In this document: positions 19,418 through 54,537 of the stretch, piece after piece
Position numbering within the stretch: position 1 is the stretch's first letter
Layout: each line of letters starts with the position of its first letter
Source of the DNA: Clostridiales bacterium
GTDB lineage: Bacteria; Bacillota; Clostridia; Christensenellales; CAG-138
Direction: 5' to 3'
Length of the DNA stretch: 64,000 nt
Assembly (NCBI GenBank): GCA_004557245.1
Contig: SFEL01000014.1
Location: 2,093 to 66,092 of the forward strand
Program-made: the position numbers and the translations under genes
The notes under the pieces: model-generated
Seen by the model: only the letters and a program-made list of their open reading frames with translations
Database searches by the model: none
Told to the model about the DNA's origin: nothing

Positions 19418-19972
19418 ATGGCAGAAAAGACCGATCTTAATAAGGTAGTGGATAAGGTGCTGGTAAGCGAGGAGGAACTGCAAAGGCGCATAGCCGAGCT
19501 GGGCGCTCAGCTTTCGGAGGATTACGAGGGCAAGGACGTGATATGCGTCTGCATACTCAGGGGCGCCGTCCACTTCTTTTCCGACCTTGTGCGGCATATG
19601 ACTTGTATGACAGAGCTGGACTTCATGTCCATATCCAGCTACGGCAACGGAAAGAGGACCTCCGGAATAGTGCGCATAGCCAAGGATATGGATACCAGCA
19701 TAACCGGCCGCCACGTGCTCATAATCGAGGACATAATGGACAGCGGCCATACCCTTAAGCACCTTAAGAAGGTACTGGAGGCAAGAGAGCCCGCGTCCCT
19801 TAAAATATGCTGCCTGCTGGATAAGCCTTCCCGCAGAGAATGCGATATCACACCGGACTATACCGGCTTCGTCATACCCAACGAATTCGTGTTGGGCTAC
19901 GGGTTGGACTTCAACAACTTCTACCGCAACCTGCCCTACGTGGGAGTTCTCAAGCCGGAATATTACGAATAA
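19418..19972 (+). CDS. hpt: Hypoxanthine phosphoribosyltransferase
   Basis: PRPP-binding motif VLIIEDIMDSGHT. Canonical tilS-hpt linkage. Confidence 0.93.
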   Translation: MAEKTDLNKVVDKVLVSEEELQRRIAELGAQLSEDYEGKDVICVCILRGAVHFFSDLVRHMTCMTELDFMSISSYGNGKRTSGIVRIAKDMDTSITGRHVLIIEDIMDSGHTLKHLKKVLEAREPASLKICCLLDKPSRRECDITPDYTGFVIPNEFVLGYGLDFNNFYRNLPYVGVLKPEYYE

Positions 19973-20088
19973 TAAAATTACGTAAATTCATAATTTGTTA
20001 ATAAAATCGTGGTTGGCCGCTTGTTGACAAAGCGCCAATCATGACGCAAAATGTATAAATCAACATATTGGATCGATAGGTAAGAAGT

Positions 20089-20853
20089 ATGAATAAGGAA
20101 GAGGAACGGATAAACGAGCTGGAAGAAAAGCTCTGGCAAAGCCAAGCGAAAGCCGGAAAGGCTCAGGAAGCTGTGGACAAGGCCCAAAGCACCCTCAGAA
20201 CCGTAAAGGATATGGGTGCGGCGGAAACCGTAATAACCGCAGCGGAGCAGGCCTTTGAAGCGGCAGAGGCCGACCTCGCCCATGCCGAGGAGGATATAAT
20301 AAAGGCAGAGGAGGAGCTGAAGGAGGCCAGGGAAGTTCAGGAGGACGAGACGGAGGAGCTCAAAGACGCAGCCGGGGACCAGCAGCCCAAAAAGAAGGGT
20401 AAGGCCGGCCTTGTCATAGGCATAATAGCCGCGGTGGCCCTTATAGGCGCGGGCGGATGGTATTATTATACAAACTTTATACAGGGCGCAAAGCAGAACG
20501 AAGAGCCCGTAGCAGATAGCCAGCCTCTGGAGATGCCGGACCTCACATACGAAGTTGCTGACGTAGCTCAGAGCATACTTAAAAATAAGGGCATCGATGC
20601 CGACATACTGTTCGTATCCTCCGAGAAGGTGCCAAAGGGTCTGGTCGCCCTGCAAAGCGTAAGTGCGGGACAGGAGATAGACGGCGACGAAAAGGTGACG
20701 GTGTACATAAGCCTGGGTCCCGCTCCCACGCCCACCCCGGAGCCCAGCCCCCTGCCTACTCCTACGCCAAAGGCCAGCCCCAAACCCCGCAGGACCAAGA
20801 TACCCGAGATAGTAATACCTCAGCCTGTAGTGACGCCCTGCCCCGTTGGGTGA
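20089..20853 (+). CDS. Membrane protein with N-terminal coiled-coil, single TM, PASTA-like domain and Pro-rich tail
   Basis: The N-terminus is rich in E, A and K. The TM segment is GLVIGIIAAVALIGAGGW. The segment PDLTYEVADVAQSILKNKGID..VPKGLVALQSVSAGQEIDGDEKVTVYISLG matches the PASTA pattern. Confidence 0.6.
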   Translation: MNKEEERINELEEKLWQSQAKAGKAQEAVDKAQSTLRTVKDMGAAETVITAAEQAFEAAEADLAHAEEDIIKAEEELKEAREVQEDETEELKDAAGDQQPKKKGKAGLVIGIIAAVALIGAGGWYYYTNFIQGAKQNEEPVADSQPLEMPDLTYEVADVAQSILKNKGIDADILFVSSEKVPKGLVALQSVSAGQEIDGDEKVTVYISLGPAPTPTPEPSPLPTPTPKASPKPRRTKIPEIVIPQPVVTPCPVG

Positions 20854-22160: not shown

Positions 22161-22216
22161 TACGGCTGAATATAACTGCCCCGGGCGACCGGGGCAGTTA
22201 GTGTATCGAAAAGGCC

Positions 22217-22412
22217 AGTCTGTCAAAAAACCCCGGGGTTGATAAGGGGCCGCAGCCCCTTATTTTTAATCCGGCTCTGACGACATGTGCGTCAGAACGG
22301 ATGAAAACCTAGAGGTTTTCGCACCTTTCGGGTTTTGCCGCCCGGGAGCGAATGCGAGAGGCAAAACCCATAAAACTCGAAAAAGTGGCGTTTAGCCACT
22401 TTTTCGACAGTC
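22217..22412 (+). repeat. Multi-hairpin intergenic repeat element, copy 2 (subtype a, compact form)
   Basis: All five hairpin modules are present. The ends, AGTCTGTCAAAAAA...TTTTTCGACAGTC, form an imperfect terminal inverted repeat. Confidence 0.85.
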
Positions 22413-28593: not shown

Positions 28594-29155
28594 TTGCTTC
28601 CCGCTCCTGGCGCCTGAGGTATTCCGCCGCCTTGAACAGGCCGAATACCGTCTTGCCGTCGGAAATCTGGTCATTCATTATCATATCTATAAGCTGGCAC
28701 AGTGGCGTTTCCCGGTAGTCCAGAAATTCGTCCTCATCCGGGTGGGCATTGCCATAGCTCAGGCCCCTGGCAAGGTACACATATATACGCTCCGAAAGTA
28801 TGGCGGGGGAGGGTATGTATATGCCCAAAGGGACAAACTCCTTCGCCGTTACGCCTATCTCCTCCTTAAGCTCCCGCTTCGCCGCATCGAGAGGGTCTGT
28901 GTCGAAGGCCTCCAGCTTGCCTGCGGGTATCTCTGTCATCACCCTCTGCTGCGGGTAGCGGAACTGGCGCTCTATTATTACGCCGCCATTATCCGTGAGC
29001 GGCACCACGGCCACCGCGCCGCGGTGTTTAAGATAATCCCTCCGGGCGGTCTTTTTGTTGCAAAGCTCAACGGTATCGCTGTACACGTCGAATACCGGGC
29101 CGGAATACTGTATGGCGGAGGAAACCGTCCTTTCAAAAAGCCTGCTGTCGTCCAT
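28586..29155 (-). CDS. NUDIX hydrolase (ADP-ribose pyrophosphatase-like)
   Basis: Nudix box GKLEAFDTDPLDAAKRELKEEIG. The start is set at the ATG preceded by AGGAGGG. Confidence 0.85.
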   Translation of the reverse strand: MDDSRLFERTVSSAIQYSGPVFDVYSDTVELCNKKTARRDYLKHRGAVAVVPLTDNGGVIIERQFRYPQQRVMTEIPAGKLEAFDTDPLDAAKRELKEEIGVTAKEFVPLGIYIPSPAILSERIYVYLARGLSYGNAHPDEDEFLDYRETPLCQLIDMIMNDQISDGKTVFGLFKAAEYLRRQEREANG

Positions 29156-29410
29156 GTGACAACCCTCCTGCAATTCTCAGCAAAATCCATTATAGCATAT
29201 CACGGCGGTGCCATAAAAGCAAATAACGGCACACTTTTTTAACCTTTGGACAAAACCGGACAATAATTGTGCGAAAGGAGGCAAATGCCTACAAAAACAG
29301 CCAAATTTATTCCCTATCGCTGCGAAAATGGCGGTGCTAAAATCACAGCATACAGAAAACCGCATATACCGCAGGATAACCAAAAAATTACATTATTACG
29401 GAGGCACTAT

Positions 29411-30217
29411 ATGGCTAAATACCGCATACTTTTGGCAGACAGCAACAACCAGTTCCAGACCACCGTCAGGGATTACCTTACGGCTCAGGAAGGAATAGAA
29501 AGGGTGGACACCGTGAACGACGGTCAGTCCGCCCTGGACGCAATGAACAACAACCGGTACGATGTGCTCCTGTGCGATCTCATCATGCCGGGCATGGACG
29601 GCTTTGAGCTCCTTGAGAGGCTTAACAGCGGCCTCGTGAAGGACGTGCCTGCCGTCATAGTGATAAGCGCCCTGCGTCAGGAGGAGATGGTACGGCAGGC
29701 CTGCACACTTGGCGCAAAGTATTACATGGTCAAGCCCATCGACCCCGATACGCTGTACAAGCGCATAATGGACATGATGGAGAGCACCTACGCACAGCGC
29801 TCGCAGGTCTGTGCCATAAGCCCCAAACCCCAGACTCTGGACGAGAAAATCGCTTCTGTATTCCTCATGATAGGCATACCCGCCCACATAAAGGGCTACC
29901 ATTACCTGCGGGAGGCGGTGCGCATGGTATACTTTGAGCCCGCCCTCTGCGGCCGCATAACCAAGGAGCTTTACCCCGGCATCGCCAAGAGGTTCCAGAC
30001 CTCTGCATCTAAAGTTGAGCGCGCCATACGCCACGCCATAGAGGTGGCCTGGACCCGCGGGAAAATAGAGAACATCAACCAGATATTTGGCTACAATATC
30101 TACAGCAAAAACGACAAGCCCACCAACGGCGAGTTCATAGCCCTGGTTGCCGATAAGCTCATCCTTGAATCCGCAAGGGAAAAGGGCGGCAAGACGGAGA
30201 TTCAAAACGTCATATAA
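29411..30217 (+). CDS. spo0A: Sporulation master regulator Spo0A
   Basis: Receiver domain ([20 protein letters not shown]) plus a Spo0A_C effector domain ([32 protein letters not shown]). The start is set at MAKYR, preceded by GGAGG. Confidence 0.95.
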
Positions 30218-30769
30218 TCAGGCAAAAATTGAGGGTTGAGGGCTTCGCGATCTGTTCTCTCTCACACCGACCAACGCTCAAAGTTCCAACTGAATTTGAG
30301 GGGAAAATCCGATAAATATTTTTTCCTGAGCCGACTAACTCCTTCTGTTTATTGGGTGAAAATTATGCCTATAAACAGGAGGAGTTTTGGTTATGAATTC
30401 GCTATCCCAACATCAAGAAGTGGTTCCTTGCCAAGTATCCTGAAATAGCGCAGTTCGGCGTAGTGGAAACTCAGGAAAACAAAGTTGAAAATAAACTTTC
30501 AATCGTGAAAGGAGAGGCAAGCTATCAGGCAGCCTAATGAGAATGGAATATGGAAAGATAAAAGACCTTCCGAATGTTGGGAAGGTCTTTTTCATCAATA
30601 ATCATGTTAGATTTTTCTATTATCGATGTAATATCTGCACAATTTTCCTTGAGGGCAATAGTGTTATATGTTAATATTAATAAATAGTTGCACTCCCATT
30701 TACATCAAGAAATGGGGCTACATTCTTTAGGTACAGTCACTTGTATGTATCATTAAAGGAGTATTGTAT

Positions 30770-31624
30770 ATGGAGCGATTTTGTCGCAAATGCGGAAAAA
30801 AATTACTAGACGATAGCATCTTTTGTTCATTCTGTGGTGAAAAAGTCATCATGCCTATAGATCCCATATCTGCTGATTCTAGTATTTCCTGTGAAAATAA
30901 GCGTACAATACCTCAGTATGATACGCATCAACGATCTAATCATAAAGGCAGTATTAAGAACTGCATATCCAAACATCGAATTGCAATTATATTATTTTGT
31001 ATCTGTCTAATAATCATGGGTGTGTCAGCATACAATAATAATTTCAGAATCAATACTATATCCGATGAATCTTTTTTCATTGCCAAGGCGGGCGATACTG
31101 TATGGATCAATAAAGAGGATGCCAAAGTTGAAATTTCATCTTCTTCTAAAACTTTGGCTCCTGGGCTTCTAAGATCTTACGACATAAATTCCCCTTTTAC
31201 TTTCGTTCGGTCATCTGACGAAACGGATTATGTTATAGTATTTGATGAATTTAATAAGGCAGAAGGAAAAATCGAAGCAAAATATCTATCAGAGGCCCCT
31301 ATAAAAAATACTCATTCTTGGGCTTGGGCTGAGGATTATTATGGTCAAGAAATCACTATTGCAGGACCCGTTGAAAGCACAGCATATAAGCCATCAGTTA
31401 ATGGGCGACCAACATTTATTAACATTGGCCATGACAATCGTTCTTTAAAAATAAAACAAGTAACCGCAATTATATGGGGAAAAGACAGATGGAAATTCCC
31501 TAAGGATATAGAGCATTATTTGAATGGAAAAAATGTTAGAATCTATGGCGAGGTTTATGAGTACGAAGGTCACCCAAATATAAGGATCAAAAATCCTTCA
31601 CAGATATATATTGACGAAAGATAA
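30770..31624 (+). CDS. Hypothetical membrane protein: N-terminal zinc-ribbon, one TM, extracytoplasmic domain ending in an OB-fold-like module
   Basis: CRKCGKK..CSFCG zinc ribbon and the TM segment IAIILFCICLIIMGV. The C-terminal pattern GQEITIAGPV..FINIG..VTAIIWGKD..GKNVRIYGEVYEYEGHPNIRIKNPSQI resembles tRNA_anti-like OB domains. RBS is AAAGGAG. Confidence 0.6.
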   Translation: MERFCRKCGKKLLDDSIFCSFCGEKVIMPIDPISADSSISCENKRTIPQYDTHQRSNHKGSIKNCISKHRIAIILFCICLIIMGVSAYNNNFRINTISDESFFIAKAGDTVWINKEDAKVEISSSSKTLAPGLLRSYDINSPFTFVRSSDETDYVIVFDEFNKAEGKIEAKYLSEAPIKNTHSWAWAEDYYGQEITIAGPVESTAYKPSVNGRPTFINIGHDNRSLKIKQVTAIIWGKDRWKFPKDIEHYLNGKNVRIYGEVYEYEGHPNIRIKNPSQIYIDER

Positions 31625-32101
31625 GTTAAAACACATGTGAAAAAACTATATAAAGCTCCCTTATATGGGAGCTTTAATTTCATTAACTCTAATGTCAAGT
31701 TTCCTAAGCAGTTCCCAAAATTGGTTTTCACTCTGAATTTTTGGTATAATATTTATAGAAAGTAAGGGAAATAAGCGTTTTTCTCCTGATGCTTTCGCAA
31801 CACATCAAATAAATAAAACAATCACGCCACCTCCACCAGAACGAACTTAGCGGAGCCTCATTCAGAGAAGTTCTACATATACGTAGAAGAATACGTATTC
31901 TAAGTATTATGTCTCCCCAAGCTTGTGGTTCATATAAGGGGTTCAGTAATGGATTCCATTAAAAAGAACCTGAACAACCCAAATATAAGGATAAAATAAA
32001 GAAAGAGTGACTTATCATTCGTTGGACTTCAGTCCTCACAAATCGCTTTGACAGCACAGCTTTTAAAAAGGAGTATAACGAACTTTACAAGCGTTTTTCT
32101 T

Positions 32102-32371
32102 TTATAATCTCTGCAGTTCTTCAATTAGTTTATCTATGGTCTTCATACTATAAACTTTTGTATTATACATTTTTGCTATGCCTGATTCCTCCAATAAATC
32201 ACAAAAGGCATTATCCGTAAATGCGTGAGTCACAAATGGCAAATATGCTGCAGCCCAAACAGTATCCAAATGGTCGCTTCCGAGAATTTTTTTATCCTTA
32301 CACATCCTATATGCCCATAGCGTACTCTCTATTTTCCTATAAGGAATAGCCTGATGATGATCACTAAGCAA
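32102..32371 (-). CDS. Hypothetical protein (islet cargo), possibly a gene fragment
   Basis: ORF only. It uses a TTG start with no clear RBS and has AT-rich codon usage matching the islet. Confidence 0.3.
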   Translation of the reverse strand: MLSDHHQAIPYRKIESTLWAYRMCKDKKILGSDHLDTVWAAAYLPFVTHAFTDNAFCDLLEESGIAKMYNTKVYSMKTIDKLIEELQRL

Positions 32372-32607
32372 AAAATTATAGTACTTTAATATTTTATTGT
32401 TTGCATAAAAGTTGTTATAAACTTGTTTCTATCTTAATCCCAACTTGCCTCCTCACACCCACCAACACACAAATTTCTGATGTTAGTCGCCCTAAAACTT
32501 GCTTTAATATTTTTTGTCTGCTATTATCTGAAAAACACCAAGAAACAGAAGGTACTGGATTCGACTAACTCCCCTATAAATCAGTCTCAGGCTTCAGATG
32601 CGGCATG

Positions 32608-32761
32608 TAGCAAAAACGTAGACAATCAGCCTATTGCTGCGCAGCAGCACTAGGCTGAGCAGCCCACCAACGGCGAGTTCATCGCCCTGGTTGCTGACAA
32701 GCTCATCATGGAGACTGCCCGGGAGAAAAACGGCAGAAGCAAGATTCAGAATGTGATATAG
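32608..32761 (+). pseudogene. Displaced, degenerate copy of the spo0A 3' end
   Basis: Positions 32661-32761 align with 30117-30217 and translate to [32 protein letters not shown], against [32 protein letters not shown] in the live gene. The upstream AGCAAAAACG also matches, but an in-frame TAG and a ~45-nt insertion interrupt it. Confidence 0.8.
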
Positions 32762-32797
32762 GTGTGCTATAATGGAGAAAAACCTCCGGAGGTCTCC

Positions 32798-33334
32798 ATG
32801 CATACCCTCAAGCTTATCCGCCCGACTCAGGAATACGCAGATCAGGTAATGGCATACCGGCAGGAGATGCTGGACAACGGCGACAGCCTGGATGGATGTG
32901 CCGCTCTGGAGGATACCAACAGCTACGCCGAATGGGCGGATTTTGAGGGGCGGCTCAGAGAGCGCTACGGCGAAGGCTATGTGCCGTCCGATGTGTACCT
33001 GGCGGTGCGCAAAAGCGATGACAGGCTGGTTGGCATGATTGACTTCAGGCGGCCGTTGACGGAATTTCTGCTGCGCTTCGGGGGGAATATCGGCTACAGC
33101 GTGCGTCCTTCCGAGCGGGGAAAGGGCTACGCAGGCGAGATGCTTTCGCTGCTGCTGCCCAAGTGCCGCGAGGCGGGGGAGAACAGGGTGCTGCTCACAT
33201 GCGACGCGGACAACGAGGCGTCCCGCCGGACTATAATAAAAAACGGCGGCGTGTTGGAAAACCAGGTTGAGTGTGATGCGGCTCTTAGCCGTTGCGGGAT
33301 GATACAGAGGTACTGGATAACATTGAAGCCTTAA
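32798..33334 (+). CDS. GNAT family N-acetyltransferase
   Basis: The acetyl-CoA-binding motif RGKGYAGEML and the GNAT fold pattern. The start is set at MHTLKLIRP, preceded by GGAGG. Confidence 0.85.
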   Translation: MHTLKLIRPTQEYADQVMAYRQEMLDNGDSLDGCAALEDTNSYAEWADFEGRLRERYGEGYVPSDVYLAVRKSDDRLVGMIDFRRPLTEFLLRFGGNIGYSVRPSERGKGYAGEMLSLLLPKCREAGENRVLLTCDADNEASRRTIIKNGGVLENQVECDAALSRCGMIQRYWITLKP

Positions 33335-33347
33335 ATCAAGGTGAAAA

Positions 33348-33376
33348 GGGGAGAGCCGGCCGGCTCCCCTTTTTTG
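33348..33376 (+). terminator. Intrinsic terminator (GGGGAGAGCCGG/CCGGCTCCCC + TTTTTT)
   Basis: Perfect GC-rich hairpin with a T6 run, 14 nt after the GNAT stop. Confidence 0.8.
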
Positions 33377-33761
33377 TCCCCAAAAGGGAAACACGGAATT
33401 CGCCCTATGTGTAAAATAATATCTTTTTACCGGCGGCGGCAAAGGGCAGGGCAATAATAAATATACGTCAAGGTTTTATTCTTAACTTGTTGTTAACACT
33501 GAAACTGGCTTAAACGCGTTGAAATGTGGATAACTATGTTGATAATGTTAGTAACTCATGTTATTAACGCCCACGCATACTCATTTTTTTATGCAGTATC
33601 TTCGTACAAGCGGCCGGAGTAAGAAACATTAAATATTATCACCCGTGTGTTTTTTACCTTCGTTTTTCGGGTGAATGGCCACATAAGCGGCCCTTTTGCA
33701 TAATTGGCATACTACCCTCGTATGATTATATAACGATAATCTGTGCGAGAGGAGCAGGCAT

Positions 33762-35219
33762 ATGGAACTGATCTGGAAAGAGCTTCCGGGGGAGCGGATA
33801 ATATATACAGGAGTATCTCAGGGAACCGTCGAGGGCGGCATACCGCTGCCGGAGGGCCGCAGCGCAAAGGAGATACTCTCGTATACCGGCGAGGTGGTTA
33901 TATCTTCATCCAGCGCCCGGGAGGGCGAGATAGCCATAGAGGGAGTTGTGAGGATTGACCTCATCTGCATGGATGACAAGGTGTTTGCCTTCACCTCAAG
34001 CGCCCCCTTCACCCACCGCATAGCGGCGGGGGGCGTGCGGGAGGGCATGAGAGCCGAGGTGCAGGCGGCGCTGCAATCCCTGGAAATAAACAAGGGGGAG
34101 GGCGGAATTACCCTCAACGCGGTAGCGGATATAAACGCAATGGTGACAGCCTCAGGCGGGGCAAAGGTGCTGGACGGAATAAGCGGTATAGAGGATGGGG
34201 AGCAGCAGCGGCAGGAGCTGACACTCTACGAGCGGGCGGGGGAGAGCCGGGGCAGCTTCCGCCTGCGGGAGGAGATAGAGGCGCCCTTCGCCACAGAGGT
34301 GCTGTACAGCGAGGTACATGGGGCGCTGAGGGACGTATCTCCCGGCAAAGACGGAATATGCCTGGAGGGTACGCTGTACATATCGGCGCTGGTACAGAGC
34401 CGCACAGGGGCGATGAGCCAGTTAAGCCAGGCCATACCCTTCACTCAGACCGTGGACGGAGAGGCGCTGACTCCCATGTGGGGCGAGGTGAGGGTATCCG
34501 GCTGTCAGGTGCGGGGGGCTGAGGATTTTGGCGTAGTGATAGCGGATGTGGAGCTCACATACCGCACATGGGGCCGTGCCGGCGGCCGTTCCGATGCTGT
34601 GACAGACACATTTTCCCCTACGGTGCCATTTAACTGCACACATGGACTTATACGCACCTCGTCATACTGCGGGCTGAGCACACAGCGGCAGTCCATAAGT
34701 GAAAACGTAATGATACCCGATGGTATGCCCGAGGCGGCCAGGGTGGTATACGCGACCGCACGGCCCATGGTGACGTCCTACGGCATAGAAAACGGGGTAC
34801 TCACCGCTGAGGGGCTGCTGTTCACCCGCATATTATACACCGCCGAAAGCGGCTGCATATTCGCTTTCAATGAGGATATACCCTTCTCTGTGAACATGGA
34901 GGCCCAAGGCGCCACAGACGCCATGATATACGGAGTGGCGGCGGCCTCGGCGGCGGGAGGAGGCAGGAGCGTGGAACTGAACTGTACGCTCATACTCATT
35001 GCGGATCTGTACTGCACCGGCGGCTTTGAGGCGGTGACGGGCATTGAGGAGTGCCCCCAAAGACCCCCGCATCAGGGCATAACCGTGTACTTTGCCAGCG
35101 CCGGAGATACGCTGTACTCCATAGCCCGGGAGTACAATACCAGCCGGGCCAACCTGCTGCGCATGAACGACCTGCCCGAGATATTACAGGGGGGCGAACG
35201 GGTGGCGTTTATGGGGTAA
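33762..35219 (+). CDS. DUF3794 domain protein with C-terminal LysM (sporulation-associated in Clostridia)
   Basis: The C-terminus TVYFASAGDTLYSIAREYNTSRANLLRMNDL is a LysM domain. The N-terminal ~400 aa shows repetitive beta-rich DUF3794-like architecture. Confidence 0.8.
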   Translation: MELIWKELPGERIIYTGVSQGTVEGGIPLPEGRSAKEILSYTGEVVISSSSAREGEIAIEGVVRIDLICMDDKVFAFTSSAPFTHRIAAGGVREGMRAEVQAALQSLEINKGEGGITLNAVADINAMVTASGGAKVLDGISGIEDGEQQRQELTLYERAGESRGSFRLREEIEAPFATEVLYSEVHGALRDVSPGKDGICLEGTLYISALVQSRTGAMSQLSQAIPFTQTVDGEALTPMWGEVRVSGCQVRGAEDFGVVIADVELTYRTWGRAGGRSDAVTDTFSPTVPFNCTHGLIRTSSYCGLSTQRQSISENVMIPDGMPEAARVVYATARPMVTSYGIENGVLTAEGLLFTRILYTAESGCIFAFNEDIPFSVNMEAQGATDAMIYGVAAASAAGGGRSVELNCTLILIADLYCTGGFEAVTGIEECPQRPPHQGITVYFASAGDTLYSIAREYNTSRANLLRMNDLPEILQGGERVAFMG

Positions 35220-35232
35220 AAGAGTAAATTCA

Positions 35233-35296
35233 TCTTCTTTCTCTTTTCTTTTCATGAGAAAAGAAAAGCAGAAAGAAGCAAAGAGAAAAGAAAAGC
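35233..35296. repeat. Polypyrimidine/polypurine inverted + mirror repeat unit, copy 1
   Basis: TCTTCTTTCTCTTTTCTTTTC-atga-GAAAAGAAAAGCAGAAAGAAG-CAAAGAGAAAAGAAAAGC. A near-identical unit lies at 42341-42404. Confidence 0.85.
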
Positions 35297-35461
35297 AAAT
35301 GGGAAATATATATAAATAAGACATAGGATTATGCGTATAAGAATATAAGAACAGCCCTGCCGTCTTGTGTACGGCGGGGCTGAGCGCTGTTTTATGTTTT
35401 GTTTTAGTTGGTTTTCCTTTGCTTACTTTCCTTTTTTAAAAGGAAAGTAAGAGAAAAAACA

Positions 35462-36856
35462 CTACTTATTCTTGAGATACTCGTCTATAGCCGCGGCGGC
35501 CTTCTTGCCCGCGCCCATGGCCAGTATTACGGTAGCTGCGCCGGTAACGGCGTCGCCGCCCGCGAATACGCCGGGCTTGGAGGTAGCGCCGGTCTCGGGG
35601 TCTGCGGTTATCTCGCCCTTGCGGCCTACTACCAAGCCGGGGGTGGTGTTCTTGATGAGGGGGTTGGGGCTGTTGCCTATGGCCACGATGACGGTGTCAA
35701 CATCCAGAGTGAACTCGCTGCCTTCCTTGGCAATGGGCCTGCGGCGGCCGGAAGCATCGGGCTCGCCCAGCTCCATCTCTATGCATTCCATAGAGGTGAC
35801 ATAGCCGTTCTCGTCGCCGTTTATGCGAACGGGGTTATTGAGCACCTTGAATATGATGCCTTCTTCCTTGGCATGGTGTACTTCCTCGCGGCGGGCGGGC
35901 ATTTCGGCCTCGCTCCTGCGGTATACGATGTACACGTTCTCGGCGCCAAGACGCTTTGCGCAGCGGGCGGCGTCCATTGCCACGTTGCCGCCGCCTATTA
36001 CGGCAGCGTTCTTGCCCACGCGGATAGGAGTGTCGGTATTGGGGAACTCGTATGCCTTCATGAGGTTTATGCGGGTGAGGAACTCGTTGGCGGAGTATAC
36101 GCCGCAGAGGTTCTCGCCGGGTATCTTCTGGAAGTTGGGCAGTCCTGCGCCGCTGCCTATGAATACGGCGTCAAAGCCCTCTTCCTCCATCAGCTCATCC
36201 AGGCTTATGGAGCGGCCGACTACCACGTTGGTCTCTATCTTTACGCCCAGAGCCTCCACATTCTTTATCTCCTCGCGGACAAGCGCCTTGGGAAGACGGA
36301 ATTCGGGAATGCCGTATACCAGCACGCCGCCGGGGGTATGCAGAGCTTCGAAAATGTGCACTTCATAGCCCAGCTTCGCAAGGTCGCCTGCGCAGGTAAG
36401 GCCTGCGGGGCCGGAGCCTATCACGGCTACCTTCTTGCCGTTGGGGGCGGGTATCTCGGCGGGGGCGGAGCCCTTTGCCATGGCGTAGTCGGCGGCGAAG
36501 CGTTCCAGGCGGCCGATGCCTACGGGTTCGCCCTTAATGCCGCGGACGCACTTGCTCTCACACTGGTTTTCCTGGGGGCATACACGGCCGCAGATGGCGG
36601 GAAGGCTGTTGGTGGTCTTTATGATGGCGTAAGCGCCCTCGTAATCATGAGCGGCGATCTTTGCTATGAATTCCGGAATGCGCACGTTTACGGGGCAGCC
36701 GGAAACGCAGGGCATGTTCTTGCAGTTGAGGCAGCGGGAAGCCTCGTTGAGGGCCAGCTCTTCGTCGTAGCCCTGAGAAACTTCCTTAAAGTTCTTGTTG
36801 CGGATATTGGGCTCCTGCTCCCGGGCAGGGGTCTTCTGCAAAGTCATATTAGGCAT
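35462..36856 (-). CDS. nfnB: NADH-dependent reduced ferredoxin:NADP+ oxidoreductase subunit B (GltD-like, 2x[4Fe-4S] + FAD)
   Basis: N-terminal Cys clusters (CLNCKNMPC, CPVNVRIPEF) and two dinucleotide-binding GxGxxG motifs (VIGSGPAG, VIGGGNVA). It is paired with an NfnA-like gene. The start is at MPNMTLQ, after GGAGGGGAG. Confidence 0.85.
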   Translation of the reverse strand: MPNMTLQKTPAREQEPNIRNKNFKEVSQGYDEELALNEASRCLNCKNMPCVSGCPVNVRIPEFIAKIAAHDYEGAYAIIKTTNSLPAICGRVCPQENQCESKCVRGIKGEPVGIGRLERFAADYAMAKGSAPAEIPAPNGKKVAVIGSGPAGLTCAGDLAKLGYEVHIFEALHTPGGVLVYGIPEFRLPKALVREEIKNVEALGVKIETNVVVGRSISLDELMEEEGFDAVFIGSGAGLPNFQKIPGENLCGVYSANEFLTRINLMKAYEFPNTDTPIRVGKNAAVIGGGNVAMDAARCAKRLGAENVYIVYRRSEAEMPARREEVHHAKEEGIIFKVLNNPVRINGDENGYVTSMECIEMELGEPDASGRRRPIAKEGSEFTLDVDTVIVAIGNSPNPLIKNTTPGLVVGRKGEITADPETGATSKPGVFAGGDAVTGAATVILAMGAGKKAAAAIDEYLKNK

Positions 36857-36857
36857 A

Positions 36858-37706
36858 TTATCTCTCCCCTCCTGTAAGATGGCAGAAGTGCTTTTCGTCG
36901 GAAAGCTTTTCCTCGGCCTTGTACATGCGGCTGCGCATGATGGCCTCGTCAAAGTCTACCAGATGGCCGTCAAAGTCCGGGCCGTCGACGCAGGCGAACT
37001 TGGTCTCGCCGTTTACGGTAAGGCGGCAGCCGCCGCACATGCCGGTGCCGTCTATCATTATGGTATTCATGGAGACGGTGGTCTTGATGCCGTATTCCCT
37101 GGTGAGGTTGCATACGGCGCGCATCATGGGCATAGGCCCAAGAACGAATACTTCGTCATAGCGCGTGCCGGCCTTGAGCTGCTCCTCCAGGGCGCTGGTA
37201 ACGAAGCCCTTGTGTCCGTTGGAGCCGTCGTCGGTCATTATGTAGAGATTGCTGCAGGCGTTTTTGAATTCCTCGGTGAGGATATACAGGCTGGTGCTGC
37301 GGAAGCCTATGAATGCGTCCACGTCAGCGCCTATGGCGTTAAGGGCCTTAGCCTGAGGGTAAGCTATGGCAACGCCCAGACCGCCCGCTACTACGGCAGC
37401 CTTTTTGCCCTTCAGGTGGTCAAATTCGCTGGCCTTGCCGAGAGGGCCTGCAAAGTCCATGAGGTAATCGCCCTCCTCCAGAGTGTCCAGACGCTTTGTG
37501 GTGGCGCCTACCTTCTGGAATATTACGGTTGCCGTACCCTTTTCGCGGTCGTAATCCGCGATGGTGAGGGGTATGCGCTCGCCCTGTTCGTCAATGCGCA
37601 GTACTATAAACTGGCCGGGCAGAGCCTTCCTTGCGACGTAGGGCGCTTCGACTTCTATCAAAGACACCGTGTCGTGCAGACGTTCTTTTCTTACTATACG
37701 GTACAT
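36858..37706 (-). CDS. nfnA: NfnA subunit (ferredoxin-NADP reductase / PyrK-like FAD + [2Fe-2S] protein)
   Basis: MYRIVRKERL..GQFIVLRIDEQGERIPLTIADYD resembles the NfnA N-terminus, and the C-terminal cluster is CGGC..C. The alternative upstream ATG at 37742 (ORF-track start) cannot be excluded. Confidence 0.8.
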   Translation of the reverse strand: MYRIVRKERLHDTVSLIEVEAPYVARKALPGQFIVLRIDEQGERIPLTIADYDREKGTATVIFQKVGATTKRLDTLEEGDYLMDFAGPLGKASEFDHLKGKKAAVVAGGLGVAIAYPQAKALNAIGADVDAFIGFRSTSLYILTEEFKNACSNLYIMTDDGSNGHKGFVTSALEEQLKAGTRYDEVFVLGPMPMMRAVCNLTREYGIKTTVSMNTIMIDGTGMCGGCRLTVNGETKFACVDGPDFDGHLVDFDEAIMRSRMYKAEEKLSDEKHFCHLTGGER

Positions 37707-37948
37707 AGGCTGAACATCGCTCCTTTTAGATTTTTTGGACATAAAAGTTGATAATATAATATCGCCAATATAATGGTAATATTATAATAACGCAGTATGG
37801 CTGTAAAGTCAAAGTAAAACGCTTATTTTAACGTGCAAACCTCCGGCAGCTGAGGTAAACGCCGGCACAATAATACCCCCGCAGTTTTGCTTTAATATAG
37901 GATAGCAGAAACCGCGGGGGGAGTTCAGATGGGGATAATAAAGAATTA

Positions 37949-39019: not shown

Positions 39020-39110
39020 ATAATGAAGCCACCTCCCCTAAAAAGCGTCCTTACCTGTACAGTTTTCCTTAAAAGCGGGGAGGATTATTCATAAAAATAC
39101 CGCCCGCTCA

Positions 39111-39139
39111 TTGACATGAACGGGCGGCATGGGTATAAT
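39111..39139 (+). promoter_or_regulatory. Consensus sigma-A promoter (TTGACA-17 nt-TATAAT) for candidate antisense sRNA A
   Basis: TTGACA lies at 39111-39116 and TATAAT at 39134-39139. The -35 sits in the loop of the CCGCCCG/CGGGCGG hairpin. Confidence 0.6.
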
Positions 39140-39145
39140 GACAGT

Positions 39146-39233
39146 AGGGTAAGACCTAAACGGTCAGCCACATCACAGTATTAGTTTTCCAAAAGGAAAA
39201 ACCGCTCTGGTTGCAGCAGGGCGGTTATTTTTT
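39146..39233 (+). ncRNA. Candidate cis-antisense sRNA A (putative antitoxin RNA)
   Basis: It starts about 7 nt after the TATAAT and ends at the intrinsic terminator ACCGCTCTGG..CAGGGCGGTTATTTTTT. The U-tract is complementary to the last codons of ORF A. Confidence 0.5.
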
Positions 39234-39302
39234 CCTTATGGTGATAGTCACCGATTTTACCTCGCGCAAAAGCGCGAAAAGAATAACCAGTAATTTCATC
39301 AT
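39225..39302 (-). CDS. 25-aa hydrophobic/basic peptide MMKLLVILFALLREVKSVTITIRKK (putative type I toxin A)
   Basis: GGAGG SD 7 nt upstream, sequestered in the CACACTCTCC-GAAA-GGAGGTGTG hairpin. The frame is conserved in copy B despite 15 changed codons. Confidence 0.5.
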   Translation of the reverse strand: MMKLLVILFALLREVKSVTITIRKK

Positions 39303-39366
39303 AGGCCACACCTCCTTTCGGAGAGTGTGCTGACCGCCGCTTGCCCTATGCATTATACTTGAAAAT

Positions 39367-39396
39367 ATTATAGCGCAACTGTCTTAATTTGTCGAA
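39367..39396 (-). promoter_or_regulatory. Promoter for small ORF A (TCGACA-17 nt-TATAAT), overlapped by a TGTCGAA Spo0A-box-like heptamer
   Basis: On the minus strand the -35 lies at 39395-39390 and the -10 at 39372-39367. Plus-strand TGTCGAA lies at 39390-39396. Confidence 0.5.
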
Positions 39397-39417
39397 TAAA
39401 AAAATACCGCCCGCTCA

Positions 39418-39446
39418 TTGACATGAACGGGCAGCATGGGTATAAT
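39418..39446 (+). promoter_or_regulatory. Consensus sigma-A promoter (TTGACA-17 nt-TATAAT) for candidate antisense sRNA B
   Basis: TTGACA lies at 39418-39423 and TATAAT at 39441-39446. Confidence 0.6.
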
Positions 39447-39452
39447 AACAGT

Positions 39453-39540
39453 AGGGTAAGACCTAAACGGTCAGCCGTCCTTAAAGTTTTATTCCCTTAC
39501 GGGAACTACCGCTCTGATGTCAGCAGGGCGGTTATTTTTT
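39453..39540 (+). ncRNA. Candidate cis-antisense sRNA B (putative antitoxin RNA)
   Basis: Same architecture as sRNA A. The central hairpin has a different sequence but the same fold (TTCCC-ttac-GGGAA). Confidence 0.5.
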
Positions 39541-39609
39541 GCGAATGGTGATTGTCACCGACTTTATATCGCTTAACCAAGCAATAATGAAAGCCAATAA
39601 TTTCATCAT
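39532..39609 (-). CDS. 25-aa peptide MMKLLAFIIAWLSDIKSVTITIRKK (putative type I toxin B)
   Basis: Same length and frame as ORF A, with an identical KSVTITIRKK tail encoded by partly synonymous codons. The SD is hairpin-sequestered. Confidence 0.5.
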   Translation of the reverse strand: MMKLLAFIIAWLSDIKSVTITIRKK

Positions 39610-39673
39610 AAGCCACACCTCCTTTCGGATGGTGTGCTGACCGCCGCTTGCCCTGTGTATTATACTTGAAAAT

Positions 39674-39703
39674 ATTATAGCGCAACTGTCTTAATTTGTC
39701 GAA
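39674..39703 (-). promoter_or_regulatory. Promoter for small ORF B (TCGACA-17 nt-TATAAT) with an overlapping TGTCGAA heptamer
   Basis: On the minus strand the -35 lies at 39702-39697 and the -10 at 39679-39674. Confidence 0.5.
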
Positions 39704-39710
39704 TAAAAAA

Positions 39711-39898
39711 CTTCTTGACCCCCCACGGGGGTTGATAAGGGGTCGCAGCCCCTTATTTTCAATCCGGCTTTGGCGACATGCGCGTCAAAACGGATGAAAA
39801 GCTGCGCTTTTCCTTCCCTGCATCCTATGCTGGCCGCGCCGCAGGCGCAAGCAGAGGATGAAAAAACGTCGCAAAAGCGAAGTTTTCGCTTTTACGAA
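39711..39898 (+). repeat. Multi-hairpin intergenic repeat element, copy 3 (subtype b)
   Basis: It shares the 5' modules (GGTTGATAAGGGGTCGCAGCCCCTTAT; TTTGGCGACATGCGCGTCAAA) with all copies and the central module (TGCTGGCCGCGCCGCAGGCGCAAGCA) with copy 5. The 3' hairpin is a variant (CGCAAAAGCGAA-gttt-TCGCTTTTACG). Confidence 0.8.
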
Positions 39899-42427: not shown

Positions 42428-42620
42428 GGCTGTGGGAAAAGTCCCCGGGGTTGATAAGGGGTCGCAACCCCTTATATTCAATCCGGCTCTGACGGCGTGT
42501 ACGTCAGAACGGATGAAAACCGGAGGTTTTCGTACTCTGCGGGTTTTGCCGCCCGGGAGCGAATGCGAGAGGCAAAACGCGAAAAGAACTCGGAAAAGTG
42601 GTCTTTAGCCACTTTTCCGA
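42428..42620 (+). repeat. Multi-hairpin intergenic repeat element, copy 4 (subtype a)
   Basis: All five hairpin modules are present and the central part is nearly identical to copy 2. Confidence 0.85.
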
Positions 42621-49078: not shown

Positions 49079-49154
49079 GGGAGCATAGCTCAGCTGGGAG
49101 AGCACTTGCCTTACAAGCAAGGGGTCACAGGTTCGAGCCCTGTTGCTCCCACCA
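49079..49154 (+). tRNA. tRNA-Val (anticodon UAC)
   Basis: GGGAGCATAGCTCAGCTGGGAGAGCAC..CTTACAA anticodon loop..GGTTCGAGCCCTGTTGCTCCCACCA. The cloverleaf folds and CCA is encoded. Confidence 0.92.
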
Positions 49155-49157
49155 TTT

Positions 49158-49234
49158 GGTCCGGTAGTTCAGTTGGTTAGAATGCCAGCCTGTCACGCTG
49201 GAGGTCAGGGGTTCGAGCCCCCTCCGGATCGCCA
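49158..49234 (+). tRNA. tRNA-Asp (anticodon GUC)
   Basis: GGTCCGGTAGTTCAGTTGGTTAGAAT..CTGTCAC loop..GGTTCGAGCCCCCTCCGGATCGCCA. Confidence 0.92.
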
Positions 49235-49239
49235 TTGAT

Positions 49240-49315
49240 GCCTCGGTAGCTCAGTTGGTAGAGCAAGGGACTGAAAATCCCTGTGTCGGTGGTTCAAGTC
49301 CACTCTGAGGCACCA
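49240..49315 (+). tRNA. tRNA-Phe (anticodon GAA)
   Basis: GCCTCGGTAGCTCAGTTGGTAGAGC..CTGAAAA loop..GGTTCAAGTCCACTCTGAGGCACCA. Confidence 0.92.
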
Positions 49316-49320
49316 ATCCT

Positions 49321-49396
49321 GCGGGAATAGCTCATTTGGTAGAGCGCCGCCTTGCCAAGGCGGAGGTGGCGGGTTCGAGCCCCGTTTCCCGCTCCA
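49321..49396 (+). tRNA. tRNA-Gly (anticodon GCC)
   Basis: GCGGGAATAGCTCATTTGGTAGAGC..TTGCCAA loop..GGTTCGAGCCCCGTTTCCCGCTCCA. Confidence 0.92.
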
Positions 49397-49400
49397 CATC

Positions 49401-49474
49401 GGCACCATAGCCAAGCGGTAAGGCAGAGGTCTGCAAAACCTTCATCCCCGGTTCGATTCCGGGTGGTGCCTCCA
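49401..49474 (+). tRNA. tRNA-Cys (anticodon GCA)
   Basis: GGCACCATAGCCAAGCGGTAAGGC..CTGCAAA loop..GGTTCGATTCCGGGTGGTGCCTCCA. Confidence 0.92.
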
Positions 49475-54342: not shown

Positions 54343-54352
54343 CTTACATTAA

Positions 54353-54537
54353 GCCTTGGGGTTGTTAAGGGGCCGCAGCCCCTTATGGCTTTATTCGGAT
54401 TTGGCGACATGTGCGGCAAATCCGCAAAAAGCGCTTGCGCAGCAAGGCTTTCCCTGCATTCGGTGCTGGCCGCGCAATAGGCGCAAGCACCGGATGAAAA
54501 AAACTCGAAAAAGTGGTTTTTAACCACTTTTTCGAAA
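54353..54537 (+). repeat. Multi-hairpin intergenic repeat element, copy 5 (subtype b)
   Basis: GGTTGTTAAGGGGCCGCAGCCCCTTAT..TTTGGCGACATGTGCGGCAAATCC..TGCTGGCCGCGCAATAGGCGCAAGCA..CGAAAAAGTGGTTTTTAACCACTTTTTCG. Confidence 0.8.

Follow-up and report, generated by a model that had tools for sequence, protein, structure and literature searches.

The 64-kb window analyzed here, a stretch of Clostridiales bacterium contig SFEL01000014.1, carries the sporulation master gene spo0A, followed by an AT-rich islet and a GNAT acetyltransferase gene. All coordinates are positions in this window; L-numbers denote comparison contigs or loci, and P-numbers denote comparison proteins. The islet, 30218-32660, very probably derives from a site-specific integrative island of about 11 kb, of which it is a non-autonomous remnant. 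It resembles a cis-mobilizable element (CIME), because it contains no integrase while both attachment (att) sites and the adjoining arms have been kept. The parts of the locus are as follows.

29411-30217, forward strand: spo0A coding sequence, 268 amino acids (aa); Pfam Response_reg and Spo0A_C.
30117-30165, forward strand: attL common core, near-identical to 32661-32709 (44/47).
30166-30217, forward strand: element-borne surrogate spo0A tail; the element arm follows it in every locus, and empty sites have METAREKNGRSEIQNVI instead.
30218-30392, forward strand: P' arm, from the spo0A stop codon to the integrase start; L019 and L009 agree with it as far as the integrase ATG.
30329-30392, forward strand: conserved integrase-leader hairpin, orphaned in the window (-32 kcal/mol, z -7.0).
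30393-30397, forward strand: first 5 nt of the integrase gene (ATGAA), with deletion junction 1 next to it; the match to L009/L019 ends at 30397-30398 and jumps to L019 9628.
30398-30537, forward strand: 3' fragment of the element's 143-aa gene; window 30397-31949 equals L019 9628-11180 at 99.7%.
30560-30591: terminator hairpin of the 143-aa gene fragment.
30770-31624, forward strand: zinc-ribbon gene, 284 aa, the sole intact cargo gene; Pfam Zn_Ribbon_1.
31651-31676: bidirectional terminator after the zinc-ribbon gene.
31947-32015 and 32014-32097, forward strand: two short leftover patches, equal to L009 16844-16912 and 17823-17906 at 100%, between junctions 2, 3, and 4.
32096-32402, reverse strand: 3' fragment of the element's 345-aa gene; L009 19430-19736 and L021 6568-6874, 99.7%.
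32401-32660, forward strand: P arm, the right element end; L019 17444-17703 at 94.7%, L080 at 92%.
32661-32761, forward strand: attR, made of the common core 32661-32709 and the displaced native tail 32710-32761 (...METAREKNGRSKIQNVI, then stop); contiguous with spo0A in L004 and L085.
32798-33334, forward strand: GNAT acetyltransferase gene, the native downstream neighbor of spo0A; Pfam Acetyltransf_3 and Acetyltransf_1.

The 3' end of spo0A is present twice. A repeat finder paired 30117-30233 with 32661-32777 as direct repeats (74% over 117 nt), and the coding parts, 30117-30217 and 32661-32761, are identical at 78/101 positions. This agrees with the roughly three-quarters identity reported in a first-pass annotation of this DNA, and the peptides that it gave for the two copies read exactly as stated. 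The identity is uneven along the coding repeat, with 44/47 in the first 47 nt and 33/52 in the last 52 nt. The approximately 2.4 kb of AT-rich DNA that had been noted between the copies measures 2443 nt at 36.1% GC, in contrast to 54.5% in spo0A, 58.5% in the GNAT gene, and 54.2% in the whole window. The same annotation extended the homology of the second copy back to about 32608. Both the 10-mer AGCAAAAACG at 32609-32618 and the in-frame TAG at 32619-32621 exist, but the similarity is marginal: the extension consists of this 10-mer only, and 22/1000 shuffles scored equally well. AGCAAAAACG was also considered as the mark of an older, longer attP and rejected, its support being no better than p ~0.02.

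The original state of the site is preserved in other strains of the species. Among the proteins retrieved by a Spo0A search are conspecific ones (97% identity) whose C-terminus, ...IMETAREKNGRSEIQNVI, is that of the second copy. On contig L004, the site is empty: spo0A has the second-copy end, and the GNAT gene lies 36 nt after its stop codon. L004 1501-6685 corresponds to window 32661-37847 at 96.8% identity, with spo0A directly upstream, and a second empty-site contig, L085, has the same arrangement. Empty sites in which spo0A ends with the 32661-32761 version, which the first-pass annotation had named as a check on insertion, thus exist in L004 and L085. Judged by these contigs, the second copy is the native spo0A end. 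The empty sites are unlikely to be an artifact of repeat collapse, because the shared core is just 47 nt long and imperfect.

The live tail, by comparison, leads into one and the same non-host sequence wherever it occurs. Constantly joined to the element arm, it is therefore element-borne. The host-derived part of spo0A reaches to about 30132, and the element-borne 3' end follows. When the two tails are compared, the first 15 of the last 32 residues are identical, and the differences are confined to the last 17, at 5 positions. The view that the C-terminal ~33 residues are element-derived or mosaic therefore stands as regards the origin of the tail, but the exchange alters only these 5 positions. 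The change to Spo0A is small, amounting to five conservative substitutions in a non-conserved tail. The exact Spo0A protein of the window is recorded in 57 blocks of the collection.

Intact relatives with an integrase, a second check proposed at the outset, were found in conspecific contigs, with the integrase adjoining attL. In L009, L014-L017, L019, and L024, the gene for a 328-aa tyrosine integrase begins 176 nt beyond the spo0A stop codon, and the intact-element contigs L009 and L014-L017 encode a Spo0A identical to that of the window. The integrase gene is absent from the empty-site strains. Contig L019 spans the whole island, in the order spo0A, integrase, about 15 genes, a copy of the spo0A end, and the GNAT gene. 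This island is 11.2 kb long with 38.8% GC, and its genes include those for a replication-initiator-like protein, a helix-turn-helix (HTH) repressor, an SprT-like protein, a DNA invertase, and a WYL regulator. Pfam recognizes Phage_int_SAM_1 and Phage_integrase domains in the integrase but no separate arm-binding domain, and PHROG_1, annotated as 'integrase', matches at 8e-55. By these matches, the integrase is of the Xer-like tyrosine type. An assignment as chromosomal XerC/XerD was rejected, as the NCBIfam scores fall below the cut-offs for XerA (160.7 versus 220), XerC (154.5 versus 335), and XerD (134.3 versus 330).

In L019, the first island is followed by a second insert, E2 (17801-20447; 2.6 kb with one 644-aa gene), which is also present in L011 and L013. 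E2 is inserted at the final codons of the displaced copy of spo0A, flanked by AATGTGAT, and the copy still reads ...NVI before its stop codon. The right end of E2 resembles the P arm of the first island. The window and the empty sites are without E2.

Part of this gene content would suit a temperate phage as the parent element, with the islet as a prophage remnant: PHROG matches cover the integrase, a repressor-type HTH protein, replication-initiator-like proteins, the DNA invertase, and a RecE-like C-terminal fragment. However, capsid, tail, terminase, and lysis genes were not found in the 8- to 14-kb elements when 20 element proteins were scanned against PHROG. In addition, IMG/VR yielded no relative of the integrase, a comparison with 50,697 deposited phages gave 27% identity at best, and the islet DNA matches none of the deposited phages. 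A prophage origin is very unlikely on these grounds, and an integrative island remains the preferred parent.

Set against the intact islands, the islet resolves into six collinear blocks on L019, L009, and L021 at 94.7-100% identity. Window 29400-30397, comprising spo0A, attL, the P' arm, and the first 5 nt of the integrase gene, equals L019 5732-6729, and 32401-32757, comprising the P arm and attR, equals L019 17444-17800. Microhomology at the five deletion junctions is limited to 0-2 nt, a sign of illegitimate recombination. No integrase homologue was found anywhere in the 64-kb window; ATGAA is all that is left of the gene, in line with the earlier statement that no integrase remains. The empty sites, the intact integrase-bearing relatives, and the deletion map also agree with the earlier interpretation of the locus as the footprint of a site-specific integrative element. 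Three other assemblies (L008; L010/L020, GCA_034172665.1; and L026) contain this remnant too, with 99.5-100% identity.

The smaller features of the islet fit into this map. Two open reading frames (ORFs) had been called plausible; the one at 30770-31624 is a real gene, but the 89-aa ORF at 32102-32371 is a fragment of the 345-aa gene. The several orphan hairpins proved to be four real ones, at 30329-30392, 30560-30591, 31651-31676, and 32626-32658. Similarly, the diverged direct repeat reported near each end is recovered as 30257-30286 and 32449-32477 (25/29 identical), a 30-nt block that outscored 1000/1000 shuffles, and CGACTAACTCC is present at both 30332-30342 and 32562-32572. An Rfam scan of 29000-34000 at E<=1 gave two chance-level matches only, to a snoRNA and a rimP leader. 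One decayed mobile element accounts for the low GC content of the gap, the duplication of the spo0A end, and the orphaned hairpins alike.

The boundary of the insertion lies at a candidate recombination site. The element's spo0A homology begins at 30117 with AG followed by CCCACCAAC, 2 nt before the left half-site. The proposed core consists of this left half-site, CCCACCAAC at 30119-30127, the spacer GGCGA at 30128-30132, and an inverted right half-site, GTTCATAGC, at 30133-30141. The inverted pair is created by the codons for P-T-N and E-F-I-A and belongs to the same 9-mer class as the arm repeats. In the P' arm, four direct copies of a CCGACCAAC/CCTATAAAC-type 9-mer lie at 30267, 30309, 30331, and 30368. 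The P arm contains CCCACCAAC at 32455, CGACTAACTCC at 32562, and a core-adjacent hairpin at 32626-32658 (z -3.5). Across 19 loci, the 9-mer, a motif defined post hoc, occurs 3.4 times per P' arm versus 0.13 expected. We read the repeat near the islet ends as copies of this CCGACCAAC/CCTATAAAC-like 9-mer, and the 9-mers as putative recombinase binding sites. Segment 30119-30141 would be the core site, and we infer the exact crossover position to fall in or beside GGCGA.

Upstream of the integrase gene, the leader hairpin pairs the ribosome-binding site of the integrase, and in most loci a U-rich run follows it. RNAalifold alone returned a weak 9-pair consensus, and the longer stem was therefore tested explicitly. 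Over 19 relatives, the stem is conserved with compensatory changes: 85% of cells pair, compared with 43-58% when the controls are slid. Both sides change in 9 pairs, and 0/500 shuffles reach the observed value. The hairpin may terminate spo0A transcripts and, upon read-through, block translation of the integrase.

Together, these features indicate how the locus very probably formed. The integrase of the parent element would recombine within the DNA for the invariant Spo0A peptide KPTNGEFIA. Because the insertion falls inside the gene, the element brings along its own version of the final ~100 nt of spo0A. On integration, the host spo0A is joined to the element tail at attL, and the native tail is pushed to the far end of the element, at attR, where it still provides the upstream region of the GNAT gene. 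Five illegitimate internal deletions then removed the integrase and most genes, leaving both arms, one orphan gene for a zinc-ribbon membrane protein, and gene fragments. Such a remnant would no longer be self-mobile.

Several points weigh against this reconstruction. The empty-site contigs number two only, and in one of these, L004, the 5' end of spo0A is oddly fused. Relaxase, conjugation, and virion genes were not recognized in the parent island. L080 joins P arm, core, P' arm, and integrase in an attP-like junction, which a putative excised circle or a tandem array would fit equally well. Finally, the binding-site model is partly circular, with the arm motif chosen by eye and the core match following from the codons; its non-trivial part is only that the arms repeat the core 9-mer class.

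Within the species, the site occurs in empty, intact, and inverted states and as several distinct remnants. The description of the islet as a fixed remnant therefore holds in the sense of immobility in cis, but the site itself is polymorphic. The loci were fetched by element-linked queries, which biases the sample to occupied sites, and the counts are not allele frequencies. The intact element is present in assembly GCA_019417405.1. In L012, all DNA between the start of the integrase and the GNAT gene's end is deleted, and the surrogate is the sole tail. L001 harbors a 1.1-kb remnant that shares only the stretch of the P arm from 32632 to the core.

Some of these conspecific loci show further rearrangements. 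L001 (303-1343) is a deletion derivative with a 346-aa fusion protein, in which Spo0A continues in frame, beyond ...PTNGEFIA, into ~100 aa from the WCX end of the island's WYL regulator; the last Spo0A helix is removed, and Spo0A would probably be impaired as a regulator. In L011 (8453-10029) and L013 (7969-9545), the integrase is split into an 83-aa N-terminal part on the forward strand and a 142-aa C-terminal part on the reverse strand, with the DNA invertase gene between them, which suggests an inversion inside the island. In L007 (P0009), the spo0A sequence breaks off at the position of window 30107, and the DNA beyond has no relation to the other loci, possibly because of a chimera or a different insertion.

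The attL tails vary as well, with at least six variants in the species, a few of which combine element and host versions in a mosaic. The mosaic tails in L002, L003, L026, and L065 indicate that homologous exchange between copies does occur. They would also be compatible with an origin without site-specific integration, either by local duplication of the spo0A end and an unrelated AT-rich insertion or by acquisition of a foreign end through homologous recombination. The same can be said of L005, which has a foreign-looking C-terminus of ~50 aa and no integrase in view. However, the same boundaries with an adjacent integrase recur in many strains and genera, the empty sites are precise, and the spo0A homology of the element starts 2 nt before the proposed half-site. 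Against this evidence, an origin without an integrase is scarcely credible, and integration within spo0A is retained. The Spo0A of L005 (2066-2851, P0008), like P0005, is conspecific, with its last ~50 residues resembling the Oscillospiraceae type, and a MerR gene follows spo0A. Such an end may stem from another element type or from an imported allele.

Relatives of the integrase (48-74% identity overall) lie directly downstream of spo0A in many gut Clostridia. In a survey of a one-genome-per-species collection, 18/20 relatives (50-74% identity) are located 153-225 nt downstream of a full or near-full-length spo0A. Their hosts comprise Oscillibacter valericigenes, Pseudoflavonifractor phocaeensis, Lawsonibacter, Sporobacter, Pullichristensenella, a Peptococcaceae metagenome-assembled genome, Clostridium sp., and other Clostridia. 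All metagenome loci with enough upstream DNA (28/28) have spo0A or a spo0A 3' fragment upstream. Displaced spo0A ends of 96-143 nt (78-96% identity, 8-9.4 kb apart) were found in L054, L077, L078, L057, L058, L059, and L072; in L067, a copy of which the end of the contig leaves 55 nt lies 8.0 kb away. The repeats are more closely spaced in L042 (2.1 kb) and L056 (0.9 kb). The cargo is variable: the WYL regulator and a handful of small genes are common to some elements, and distant ones share the integrase only. In L080, L081, and L067, the integrase is preceded by a spo0A fragment only, which points to tandem arrays. On this comparative record, the spo0A 3' end is a recurrent hotspot of integration and accretion in gut Clostridia, served by what appears to be a dedicated clade of Xer-like integrases. 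Full-text literature searches returned no report of spo0A as an attachment site, an absence that is no proof of novelty.

Tandem arrays are the setting in which CIMEs are mobilized, and at this site they are represented by L080, L081, L067, and L056, in addition to E2 in L019, L011, and L013. The islet also retains attL, attR, 175 nt of P' arm, and 260 nt of P arm, 93-100% identical to intact elements. It could thus still be mobile, as a selected non-autonomous mini-element (a true CIME) moved in trans by the integrase of an incoming island. However, the window itself supplies no integrase, and the remnant was met at spo0A only, in near-identical copies (99.5-100%) that fit vertical inheritance. 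The five blunt deletion junctions, moreover, look like decay and not design. Continued mobility is therefore unlikely, and decay of an integrated island is preferred.

The islands themselves could be more than passengers. The integrase has the same orientation as spo0A and lies right after it, behind a conserved terminator-like hairpin that hides its ribosome-binding site, so its expression could follow spo0A transcription. An integrase that evolved for the codons of KPTN(G/S)EFIA, a natural inverted repeat, might have its expression, and hence excision and transfer, tied to spo0A transcription at the onset of sporulation, with the last 17 residues of Spo0A being made hypervariable and horizontally exchanged by the turnover of elements. 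We regard this scenario as speculative and quite unlikely.

The mechanism is the classic insertion at a 3' end with a replacement end, and the islet itself is ordinary mobile-element decay. Comparable insertions are those of e14 and phage 21 at icd of Escherichia coli and of ICESt1/ICESt3 at fda. One account of SGI1 names the 3' end of trmE as its target (PMC8409611). As in these 3'-end-replacing islands and prophages, a tyrosine integrase adjoins one att site, the direct repeats correspond to the 3' end of the target gene, the element-borne end preserves the reading frame, and empty and occupied alleles coexist in one species. Unlike in the islands listed, the target is spo0A and the integrase is Xer-like, without a Pfam-recognizable arm-binding domain.

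CIMEs were defined for the sites of streptococcal elements that are either integrative and conjugative (ICEs) or integrative and mobilizable (IMEs), as elements that keep the att sites and have lost the integration genes (PMC5704250). The islet likewise keeps attL and attR, has lost its integration genes, and would have arisen by decay, and its relatives show tandem accretion. It may depart from the definition in its parent, an integrase-bearing island in which no relaxase or conjugation genes were recognized and which is at most a candidate ICE or IME. Conceptually, the nearest parallel to the integrase clade is that of the dusA-specific integrases, which target the 5' end of dusA in Proteobacteria (PMC4482086). 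Both families are integrase clades set by one conserved protein-coding target, with variable islands in many taxa. In contrast to the dusA family, the target here is the 3' end of spo0A and the hosts are Clostridia.

Mobile elements inside sporulation genes of endospore-formers offer a further comparison. One of them is SPbeta, whose recombinase SprA is of the serine type, as is the one used by yin. Skin in sigK, SPbeta in spsM, and yin in yabG are such intervening elements (PMC10747680, PMC5025042), and the skin-type recombinases spoIVCA and CD1231 are serine-type (PMC10747680). Like these, the island sits within a sporulation gene; unlike these, which split a gene that is rebuilt by developmentally timed excision, it leaves spo0A whole by means of the surrogate end. 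A skin-type element was considered for the islet and rejected, as the 268-aa reading frame of spo0A is uninterrupted, its Spo0A_C domain is complete, and the recombinase beside the att site is of the tyrosine type. The small Resolvase-family invertase lies inside the island, not at an att site.

What goes beyond the routine is the choice of the sporulation master gene as target, the breadth across gut Clostridia, the accretion, the tail swapping, and the conserved leader hairpin. The arrangement could serve as a marker for small islands in metagenome-assembled genomes, and its integrase is a candidate for site-specific integration in the genetic manipulation of anaerobes that are hard to engineer. 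It also calls for caution in phylogeny from Spo0A C-termini or spo0A synteny.

The product of the intact cargo gene, 284 aa long, has a zinc ribbon at its N-terminus, a single predicted helix at residues 59-89 that probably spans the membrane, and a C-terminal part rich in beta structure. Nothing on its function beyond the zinc ribbon came from PHROG, Pfam, NCBIfam, or PADLOC, and a search of 5.8 billion proteins returned the protein itself but no other homologues. The identical protein is present in 284 blocks of the collection. A single-sequence AlphaFold (AF2) model reached a predicted local distance difference test (pLDDT) score of 36. Between L019 and the window, the cargo is 99.7% identical and spo0A with its flank 94.5%, so that the cargo is more conserved than the host backbone. 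The cargo block 30397-31949 is also present in L018 (zinc-ribbon gene at 10001-10855), L021, and L022 at 98.6-99.8%, in a different genomic context without spo0A or an integrase nearby.

On the other side of attR, a promoter-like site for the GNAT gene lies at 32745-32773 on the forward strand (TTCAGA, 17 nt, TG-n-TATAAT), a consensus match only. It was the top of the scan, with 10/12 and an extended -10. Its -35 element falls inside the displaced spo0A end, which suggests that the displaced copy is also part of the GNAT upstream region.

Elsewhere in the window, a dispersed repeat family of ~130-250 nt occurs at 13044-13298, 22216-22345, 39722-39877, 42436-42556, and 54351-54535. Its core forms three hairpins (GGGGTTGATAAGGGGCCGCAGCCCCTTAT ... 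CTCTGGCGACATGTGCGTCAGA ... GAAAACC..GGTTTTC) and has no Rfam match at gathering level; matches at that level in the whole window are to tRNAs only. These comprise an ordinary-looking cluster at 49079-49474 (Val, Asp, Phe, Gly, and Cys) and a single, equally ordinary tRNA-Thr at 10970-11045. Copies of the dispersed repeat sit at rearrangement breakpoints in contig L012. In addition, 39093-39710 consists of two tandem copies of a 307-nt unit (85% identity) that holds a TTGACA...TATAAT-like stretch.

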